The notes under the pieces are model-generated. The model was not told the origin of the DNA, ran no database searches, and was given only the letters and a program-made list of their open reading frames with translations. Of a stretch of 32,000 nucleotides of DNA, positions 9,226 through 28,003 are shown one piece after another. Every line of letters begins with the position of its first letter. The stretch's first letter is position 1. Source of the DNA: Methanosphaera stadtmanae DSM 3091. GTDB taxonomy: Archaea; Methanobacteriota; Methanobacteria; Methanobacteriales; Methanobacteriaceae. A program made the position numbers and the translations under genes. The stretch spans positions 1,350,001 through 1,382,000 of the forward strand of contig NC_007681.1 in the NCBI RefSeq assembly GCF_000012545.1, read 5' to 3'.

Positions 9226-9504
9226 TTAATTGTTACGTGAATTCTTAATATTTTTAGCAATAGCACGTAATAATTCTAATTTAGTCATATCTTCTTGTTC
9301 TACAACAACTCTTCCAGATTTTTCCCACCAAGAACCTGGATAAGATTTATTATGTTCAACAACATATTGTATTTTTAATTTTTTTAGACTCTGACTAATT
9401 TCACGTATTTTAGGTTCTTCCACTGATTCTTCAAGGGATAATTTTCTACCTTCACCCCTTGAATGTTCTGAATTTATATATGTTGGCCAAATTATTGTTT
9501 TCAT
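9226..9504 (-). CDS. srp19: Signal recognition particle 19-kDa protein
   Basis: 92 aa. The N-terminal IIWPTYINSEHSRGEGRKL is the SRP19 signature (IWPxYxDxxxSRxEGRR). A GGGAGA SD is present, and the gene starts 14 nt after the hemD stop. Confidence 0.85.
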   Translation of the reverse strand: MKTIIWPTYINSEHSRGEGRKLSLEESVEEPKIREISQSLKKLKIQYVVEHNKSYPGSWWEKSGRVVVEQEDMTKLELLRAIAKNIKNSRNN

Positions 9505-11821: not shown

Positions 11822-12070
11822 TTATTCCTCACTAATAGTTATTTCATAATCATGTATCACTGGATTACATAATAATTTTTGACACATTTGATCAACTTGT
11901 TCTGAAGCAACTTCCTTATTTTCAGCATCAATTGTAAATTTAATAATATTAAGTGTTTGTGTATTTTTAACTTCATAATCTAATAAAGCTAATGCTTTTT
12001 CAATAGTTGATGCTTCTGGACTTAGCATACCTTTTTTTAAACTTATTTTTACTTCCACATCAAAATTCAT
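11822..12070 (-). CDS. purS: Phosphoribosylformylglycinamidine synthase subunit PurS
   Basis: 82 aa. [16 protein letters not shown] and [12 protein letters not shown] fit PurS. The gene lies between purC and purQ in the classic order. Confidence 0.85.
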
Positions 12071-26642: not shown

Positions 26643-26685
26643 AAAATAAAAAAATAAGCATTTTATTTTGGTGGTTAAAGTAAAA

Positions 26686-26749
26686 ATAGCCTCAGATCGC
26701 CCATCATTCATCATTTATTCAGAGCTCATAGGGTTCATCATTGGCTACT
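26686..26749 (-). ncRNA. Box C/D sRNA (dual-guide 2'-O-methylation guide RNA)
   Basis: The minus strand reads AGUAGCC-A-AUGAUGA (C, 26741..26735)-ACCCUAUGAGCU (12 nt)-CUGA (D', 26722..26719)-AUAA-AUGAUGA (C', 26714..26708)-AUGAUGGGCGAU (12 nt)-CUGA (D, 26695..26692)-GGCUAU, then a U-tract. All four boxes are consensus and both spacers are exactly 12 nt. UAGCC/GGCUA forms the terminal stem. No ORF covers the region, and it is the only G+C-enriched non-coding island in the window. Confidence 0.85.
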
Positions 26750-26782: not shown

Positions 26783-28003
26783 TTATACAAACATCACTGA
26801 TTCTTTAGAAGATTTATCTTTATTTTTATGCATTACTTTTTCTAAAGCATCTTCAAAGTTTTTAGCTGAGACACTGTGATGTTCTTCTCTTATTGCAAAC
26901 ATACCTGCCTCAGTACATATTGATTTAAGATCTGCACCAGATGCTGATTTTGCATTTTGGGCTATGTATTTTAAATCCACATCTACATCTAATGACATGT
27001 TTTTAGTGTGTATCTTAAGAATTTCTAATTTTCCATCTTCATCTGGAACTGGAACTTCTATGATACGATCAAATCTACCTGGTCTTACAAGTGCTGGATC
27101 TAGAATATCTGGCCTATTAGTTGCTGCTATAATACCAACATTTCCTCTTGATTCAAATCCATCCATTTCTGCTAGAAGTTGCATGAGTGTTCTTTGAACT
27201 TCACGATCTCCACTTGTTGAACCTTGTAATCTTTTTGCTGCTATTGCATCAATTTCATCAATAAATATGATTGCTGGTGCTTTTTCTTTTGCTAATTCAA
27301 ATACTCCACGTACTAAACGTGAACCTTCACCTATATATTTTTTAACAAATTCTGATGCTACTATTTTTATAAAAGTTGCATTTGTTTCATGTGCTACTGC
27401 TTTTGCTAGTAAAGTCTTACCAGTTCCTGGTGGTCCATAGAAGAGAACTCCTTTTGGTGGAGTTATACCTACTTCTTCAAAGATTTTAGGATTTTTAAGA
27501 GGAAGTTCTACTGTTTCTACTGTTTCTAATACTTGATCTTTTAGTCCACCAATTTCATCATAGGTTATGGATGGTTTTTCATCTATTTCCATACCTGATA
27601 CTAATGGATCTTTTTCTGATGTTATAATATCCACAATACTAAATGTTTGTTGATTTAGAGCTACTCTTGCCCCAATTTCTATCCTATCAGAATCTTTTTC
27701 TGGATATTTTAATAGAAATGATGGTCCAGTACTACTTTTTACAACAACTTGATTATCATCCAATATTTCAGATACTGTTGCTAATACAAGTGGTGGTATT
27801 CTAAATCTGTTAATTTCACTTTTCAATGATTTAACTTCACGATCTAACCTTAAGTTTTCATTTTCAAGTAATACTTTATCTTTTTCTAGTTTTCTTACTT
27901 CCCAAGTTAGATTTCGTTCAATTGCTTCATGCTTATCAATTAAATTTGTTATTTCAGTGTTTTCTTTATTTTCAATTGTATTAAATGGTTCTGAATCTTC
28001 CAT
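26783..28003 (-). CDS. pan: Proteasome-activating nucleotidase (AAA+ ATPase)
   Basis: 406 aa. It has an N-terminal coiled coil ([26 protein letters not shown]), an OB region, Walker A GPPGTGKT, Walker B IIFIDEID, and the second region of homology [29 protein letters not shown] is present. Confidence 0.93.

Follow-up and report, generated by a model that had tools for sequence, protein, structure and literature searches.

The mechanism of characterised archaeal box C/D sRNPs is established (e.g. PMC4644070, PMC5062973), and the sRNA described here would be expected to work in the same way. Boxes C and D together with a terminal stem would form a K-turn, while boxes D′ and C′ with the 3- to 4-nt linker between them would form a K-loop; K-turn and K-loop would each bind L7Ae and then Nop5–fibrillarin. 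Each 12-nt guide would pair with its target RNA over about 10 bp, and fibrillarin would then add a methyl group to the ribose 2′-O of the target nucleotide that faces the fifth guide position, counted upstream from box D′ or D (the N+5 rule).

Two groups of described RNAs bear on the present case. In Methanococcus maripaludis, seven C/D sRNAs have RNA-seq support (Dennis et al. 2015, PMC4644070 supplement), among them sR102 and sR106, with coverages of 271853 and 255854, respectively. The target rule of that work is a run of at least nine consecutive Watson–Crick pairs, and sR102 and the family of guides built on the core GAUGGGCG, which includes that of sR106, are listed there without a 16S or 23S target (‘NP’; PMC4644070).

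The second group comprises guides for the wobble cytidine of elongator tRNA-Met. As relayed in later papers (Joardar et al. 2011, in PMC4033218, PMC6601510), the Haloferax volcanii sRNA sR-tMet guides Cm34 on the intron-containing precursor of this tRNA, and a tRNA-Met wobble guide is also present in Pyrococcus (PMC7994747). In humans, C34 of elongator tRNA-Met is 2′-O-methylated under the guidance of the C/D RNAs SNORD97 and SCARNA97 (Vitali and Kiss 2019, PMC6601510); these eukaryotic RNAs are encoded in introns, act on a mature-type tRNA sequence and have no sequence kinship to the sRNA described here. The D′ guide of our sRNA is proposed below to do the same job as sR-tMet. The two differ in build: sR-tMet is reportedly about 75 nt long, with an unusual C′/D′ motif and, in H. 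volcanii, a 3′ extension, whereas the present sRNA is a compact canonical dual guide.

A box C/D gene behind the PAN gene

In the window, by which we mean the whole 32-kb stretch of DNA that was analysed, the minus strand at 26686..26749 carries a genuine archaeal box C/D gene of a well-known kind, 64 nt long with its terminal stem, whose targets are predicted. Read 5′ to 3′, AGUAGCC (26743..26749), which forms the 5′ side of the terminal stem, and a single A (26742) precede box C, AUGAUGA (26735..26741); there follow the D′ guide ACCCUAUGAGCU (26723..26734), box D′, CUGA (26719..26722), the linker AUAA (26715..26718), which would be the loop of the internal K-loop, box C′, AUGAUGA (26708..26714), the D guide AUGAUGGGCGAU (26696..26707), box D, CUGA (26692..26695), and GGCUAU (26686..26691), the 3′ side of the same stem. 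Both guides are 12 nt long. In the minimum-free-energy fold, the 5′ stem strand pairs with 26686–26692, and the 3′ strand is also supported by alignment. The U-tract at the end of the gene (TTTTT, 26682..26686) is likely to be an archaeal oligo-T termination signal.

This anatomy agrees letter for letter with a sequence-only reading that had drawn attention to the site, including its claims of four perfect boxes, of two 12-nt guides with a 4-nt D′–C′ linker and of a terminal stem. The target-sense strings that it gave, AGCUC*AUAGGGU for the D′ guide and AUCGC*CCAUCAU for the D guide, with the methylated base starred, obey the N+5 rule and are still predicted targets. Its further claim that the sRNA is the sole G+C-enriched island in the non-coding DNA of the window also stands: the maximum G+C over 50 nt is 0.44 in the sRNA, as against 0.10–0.24 in other true intergenic regions. 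The other seemingly G+C-rich spots are window edges or short coding genes. The latter, an 82-aa PurS-like gene (11822–12070, minus strand) and a 92-aa SRP19 gene (9226–9504 region), lie below a 100-aa ORF cut-off and mimic G+C-rich ‘intergenic’ islands.

The layout is not one that arises readily by chance. The dual C/D arrangement, written as a strict regular expression, matched once on the two strands of the 32-kb window and in none of 300 composition-preserving, first-order Markov shuffles of it, while the bare pattern of a C box followed by a D box occurred in the window at chance level (three seen, 2.2 expected). When a 76-nt region was folded, the terminal stem formed as predicted, with an energy of −17.9 kcal/mol (z = −3.7) that was matched by none of 200 shuffles.

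At Rfam gathering thresholds, no RNA family was reported anywhere in the window. When the thresholds were relaxed for a 231-nt region around the gene, 46 matches were obtained, spanning 26690–26745; nearly all were to C/D-box families, so the covariance-model check proposed in the sequence-only reading gave the expected class of RNA, although only below threshold. The best match was to sR1 (RF01152; 38.8 bits, cut-off 45, E = 1e-8), and sR2 (RF01139) and snoPyro_CD (RF00095) scored 31.6 bits against 42 and 27.8 against 45. The sRNA aligns over its full length with all three and has the same box order and spacing, but their guides are unrelated to its own; we attribute the shortfall in score to the fact that the models encode other guides. 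The sRNA thus shares its architecture with named Rfam families but is included in none of them, and its absence from standard annotation is a concrete gap. Rfam sR49 and sR2 were considered as guide homologues and set aside, their aligned likeness being confined to the boxes. A covariance model (R1) built from the lineage alignment described below scored 95.2 bits and found one copy per locus, with no paralogue in the window.

The gene upstream, on the same strand, is that of the proteasome-activating nucleotidase (PAN; 26783..28003, minus strand; TIGR01242, 607 bits), as had been supposed when the sRNA was placed at the pan 3′ flank; its stop codon lies 33 nt before the sRNA, and cbiJ is convergent with the sRNA. 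A PAN protein identical to that of the window is found on hundreds of human-gut metagenome contigs, and its nearest named relatives are from Methanosphaera (89% identity in Ca. M. massiliense, ∼86% in M. stadtmanae MAGs). The window thus belongs to a Methanosphaera-like member of the Methanobacteriaceae, which bears out the order Methanobacteriales supposed in the sequence-only reading. PAN neighbourhoods were compared in nine Methanosphaera and Methanobacterium-type lineages with PAN identities from 100% down to 69% (92–69% for fetched homologues). One copy of the sRNA lies downstream of PAN in all nine, including a Methanobacterium lacus-type locus, at a distance of 26–135 nt. At locus L039 it still follows PAN even though the next gene is not cbiJ. 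This constancy of position despite a changed downstream neighbour suggests that the sRNA is co-transcribed with PAN and then trimmed. A promoter of its own is the alternative; on this point the A/T-rich boxes upstream are uninformative in DNA so low in G+C. In L036 (13762–14983; ENA ERZ13690159), PAN appears as two ORFs, of 42 and 283 aa, in place of a single 406-aa one, through either a frameshift or a mistake in assembly; the sRNA that follows it is intact.

Conservation within the gene is sharply partitioned. Forty-seven of 70 alignment columns are unchanged, among them the cores of all four boxes, every base of the D′ guide and 10 of the 12 positions in the D guide. UGAUGA is invariant in boxes C and C′ (the first base of each is A or G, within RUGAUGA), as is CUGA in boxes D′ and D. 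The D′ guide is constant at 12 of 12 positions across the nine lineages; in the D guide the core UGAUGGGCGA is constant, the base before it may be A or C and the base after it U or A. Both guides are exactly 12 nt in every lineage. The D′–C′ linker, on the other hand, varies freely over 3–4 nt (AUAA, UAUG, ACUG, UAUA, UAC, UUU, UCA), as does the outer stem, and the flanking DNA cannot be aligned. The inner 4 bp of the terminal stem are paired in all 36 cells of the nine-lineage alignment, with one double compensatory change (C–G to U–A in L011), although overall stem covariation in this alignment is too sparse to rise above a shuffle control. A run of at least four T lies no more than ∼30 nt downstream of the stem in each of the nine lineages, and no more than ∼20 nt in most of them.

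The conservation of boxes and guides at the pan flank of relatives, which had been put forward as a check on the gene, is thus seen in every lineage examined, with diverged flanks. From the alignment, the sRNA is evidently under strong purifying selection across the family. That single-stranded guides remain constant amid unalignable DNA fits selection on an antisense function and not on a terminator hairpin.

A motif of the type AACCACC recurs 3′ of the U-tract in several Methanosphaera lineages and has no obvious function. In the window it lies at 26670–26679 (minus strand TTTAACCACC); it stands just after the sRNA in L007 and L008 and ∼45 nt further downstream in L011, and weaker versions occur in L009 (AAACCCC) and L041 (AATAACC).

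Guide modules shared with known sRNAs

Both guides have counterparts among sRNAs already described. The D′ guide is identical at 11 of 12 positions to the D guide of M. maripaludis C5 sR102 (ACCGUAUGAGCU). The rest of sR102 differs: its other guide is unrelated, its linker is 19 nt against 4 nt, and its C′ box reads AUGAAGA instead of AUGAUGA. What is the D guide in sR102 has shifted to D′ here; it is the tRNA-Met-like guide of the pair.

The D guide has a core, GAUGGGCGA, that is also present in the D guide of M. maripaludis sR106 (AAGAUGGGCGAG), and the shorter core GAUGGGCG is common to sR106, M. kandleri sR114, I. hospitalis sR11 and S. acidocaldarius sR122. Members of this family (the D guide in sR106, the D′ guide in sR114, sR11 and sR122) place the same cytidine at N+5, but each has a different partner guide, and the flanking bases before the box differ (GA versus GG). 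Judged by guide sequence, the sRNA downstream of PAN unites two modules that sit on separate sRNAs in Methanococcus.

The anatomy of the element, its non-random occurrence, the selection acting on it and the homology between its guides and those of M. maripaludis sRNAs that are expressed together lead us to regard it as very probably a functional box C/D methylation guide, a statement that concerns the element and not its individual targets. A different account would have it as a chance match, or as a structured 3′-UTR or terminator of the PAN mRNA with no guide function; the short distance to the PAN stop codon, the shared strand and the terminal U-tract are what one would expect of a 3′-UTR or terminator. 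A chance match is opposed by the failure of any shuffled sequence to reproduce the layout, and a terminator hairpin would not keep four boxes and two unpaired 12-nt stretches at a PAN identity of 69% while its stem varies. The match of the guides to those of expressed sRNAs likewise speaks against any element that is not a guide, and we consider this account highly improbable.

The D′ guide and its proposed target, the wobble cytidine of tRNA-Met

We lean slightly towards the view that the D′ guide directs Cm34 formation in elongator tRNA-Met, at its wobble cytidine, and that it does so on the precursor that still contains the intron. Within the target-sense string, CUCAUA corresponds to positions 32–37 of a tRNA with a CAU anticodon, and C34 falls exactly at N+5. 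The bases that follow A37 are GGGU, or CGGU in the M. maripaludis version, and these cannot be a mature anticodon stem, which implies pairing across an exon–intron junction. The precursor would thus be expected to contain (A/G)GCUCAUAGGGU spanning the junction at position 37/38, which is where we take the elongator tRNA-Met of Methanobacteriales to have its intron. Cm34 has been detected in a tRNA-Met of M. maripaludis (PMC7668247). Wolff et al. attribute it to the initiator tRNA, which counts against the elongator reading; the initiator would pair with the D′ guide over just 8 bp.

The absence of a credible rRNA site fits a non-rRNA target for this guide. One Methanobacteriaceae 16S/23S operon was searched, which was found by translating a conserved 23S stretch, matching it to spurious ORFs and fetching the contigs; its best site for the D′ guide had 10 pairs, two of them G·U, and was equalled by 20% of shuffled guides.

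Pattern scans for the tRNA itself were negative. A pattern requiring both targets in one RNA (AGCTCATAGGGT N15-45 ATCGCCCATCAT, with A30) had no match in genome contigs. A D-stem-anchored tRNA-Met pattern (AGAGCNNNNAGCTCATAGGGT, also with A30) gave 10 bacterial chance matches and no archaeal match in the same type of contig, a failure that probably arises because these tRNAs often have GAGU D-stems and may have G30. In metagenome contigs, a T-loop-anchored pre-tRNA-Met pattern requiring A30 and T40 gave three chance matches, none of them a tRNA, and a relaxed tRNA-Met pattern returned only phage tRNAs from viral contigs. Archaeal tRNAs prefer G30 (PMC7668247), which would form a G·U pair with the 3′ U of the guide; scans that demand A30 would miss such a tRNA, and their negative results are therefore weak. 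There was no tRNA gene in the window and none in a Methanococcales rRNA flank, and just three tRNA-Gly genes came to light when 10 kb was added on each side of the window. The latter form a cluster (L036, 175–471) ∼10 kb past the right end of the window, two with UCC and one with GCC anticodons, and do not match the guides.

The D′ guide of a genuine C/D sRNA could instead pair elsewhere, with a tRNA D-arm (giving Cm13) or with a segment of RNase P RNA resembling P15/L15. The failure of the scans to turn up a tRNA-Met speaks for such a target, but the scans were over-constrained (A30 and U40 were demanded). The D-arm has some attraction. The string AGCUCAUAGGGU can be read as A9–U20 (A9 G10 C11 U12 C13 A14 ... 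G18 G19 U20) with C13 at N+5; AGCUCA followed a few bases on by GG is a D-arm signature as well; and target position 9, the only one at which M. maripaludis differs (G versus C), would coincide with the variable D-loop position 17. The lead to RNase P comes from the E. coli RNA, which presumably contains GGUUCAUAAGGU. Against the D-arm, we know of no Cm13, and the fit needs U15, whereas archaeal tRNAs almost always have G15, the archaeosine site (PMC7668247). C34 of tRNA-Met, by contrast with either candidate, is a documented C/D-guided site that sits exactly at N+5. We therefore judge a target other than tRNA-Met unlikely.

The D guide and its possible targets

For the D guide, no perfect site UCGCCCAUCA was present in the one Methanobacteriaceae 16S/23S operon. 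The spurious ORFs through which this operon was reached (motif GWGCSPIK) are called inside archaeal 23S genes (L042 4734–4967, L043 2898–3131, P0121–P0127), and the corresponding ‘proteins’ sit in a public protein collection.

Tentatively, we suggest that the D guide may pair with the 3′ side of the 23S A-loop and with helix 92, so that the nucleotide matching E. coli C2558 would be methylated. Its best rRNA duplex is with 23S UUCGCCCAUUAA, over 10 contiguous pairs (nine Watson–Crick and one G·U) that run as eight consecutive Watson–Crick pairs, the G·U and one more, with a Watson–Crick pair at N+5; 47 of 300 shuffled guides did as well, so that the duplex taken by itself is no better than chance. 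The sequence corresponds to the 3′ side of the A-loop and the 3′ strand of helix 92 (E. coli 2554–2565), and N+5 is the C2558 equivalent. M. maripaludis 23S carries the same UUCGCCCAUUAA. The only natural change at the 3′ end of the guide, the U-to-A variant of L009, extends the 23S duplex to 11 pairs and worsens a candidate 16S duplex. Finally, the guide base opposite 2555 (target position 2) is A where methanogen 23S has U, and G in the guides of hyperthermophiles; position 2555 is C, with which that G would pair, in two Thermoproteales sequences, which are not the 23S of the hosts of those guides. The identity in M. maripaludis, the L009 variant and the tracking of position 2555 are our grounds for favouring the 23S site.

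The competing site in 16S is C1402 (E. coli numbering), in the decoding centre, which is ribose-methylated in bacteria and eukaryotes. The universal sequence ACCGCCCGUCAC (1398–1409), present in the Methanobacteriaceae operon (L042, position 1616), pairs with the guide over nine contiguous positions with a Watson–Crick pair at C1402 as N+5, and hyperthermophile versions of the guide pair over 9–11 positions. Yet this duplex contains an internal G·U, to which the methanogen versions add a C·A mismatch; it is weakened by the L009 variant, and the guide flanks fail to track the constant flanks of the 16S site. The flanks raise a difficulty for 23S too, in that they seem to track a target whose own flanks vary, and the G opposite U2563 is kept in all five lineages, which is odd for a selected target. 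Together, the odd G and the variable flanks keep an unrecognised conserved RNA a live alternative. The target core CGCCCAUC is constant in five lineages while its flanks vary, and neither 16S nor 23S offers a perfect site; such an RNA, however, cannot be named. That the D guide acts on C1402, or on some conserved RNA other than 16S and 23S, seems to us rather unlikely.

Two further candidates were rejected. A site in a tRNA T-loop, T-stem or acceptor returned only phage tRNAs in a scan of viral contigs, and would need an A/U-rich acceptor stem that is implausible in hyperthermophiles. A site in 23S helix 43 (GTPase-associated centre) was suggested by E. coli AGCAGCCAUCAU, but archaeal 23S has GAAGCAGCCAUC there and the Methanobacteriaceae 23S has no match.

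On a broader view, two ancient modules may have been joined, of which the GAUGGGCG module is kept in at least five lineages of Euryarchaeota and Crenarchaeota and has an accepted rRNA target in none of them. This module could serve an as-yet-unrecognised conserved RNA site (core CGC*CCAUC, with variable flanks), or its duplex with the 23S A-loop stem could be imperfect by design, the sRNA perhaps helping that stem to fold as a chaperone instead of, or besides, guiding methylation. We regard this as distinctly unlikely.

M. maripaludis has been reported to lack guide-directed modification in the 23S A-loop (PMC4644070). The D guide of sR106 can be paired with helix 92 UUCGCCCAUU through eight Watson–Crick and two G·U pairs, with the C2558 equivalent at N+5, just under the threshold of Dennis et al. 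(PMC4644070). If the D guide of the sRNA downstream of PAN does act on the 23S A-loop stem, modification of the A site would be guide-directed in M. maripaludis and its relatives, against that published statement.

None of this alters the known workings of C/D sRNPs. The sRNA is kept across Methanosphaera and Methanobacterium-type genomes, including those of human-gut archaea. Mesophilic methanogens have few C/D sRNAs, as the set of M. maripaludis illustrates, so that each probably installs a modification that matters; this sRNA probably belongs to a very small set of such guides in these gut methanogens and likely carries a widely conserved guide for the tRNA-Met wobble position. If its D′ guide does install Cm34, methylation must precede removal of the intron, and the decoding of AUG would be protected against that of AUA.
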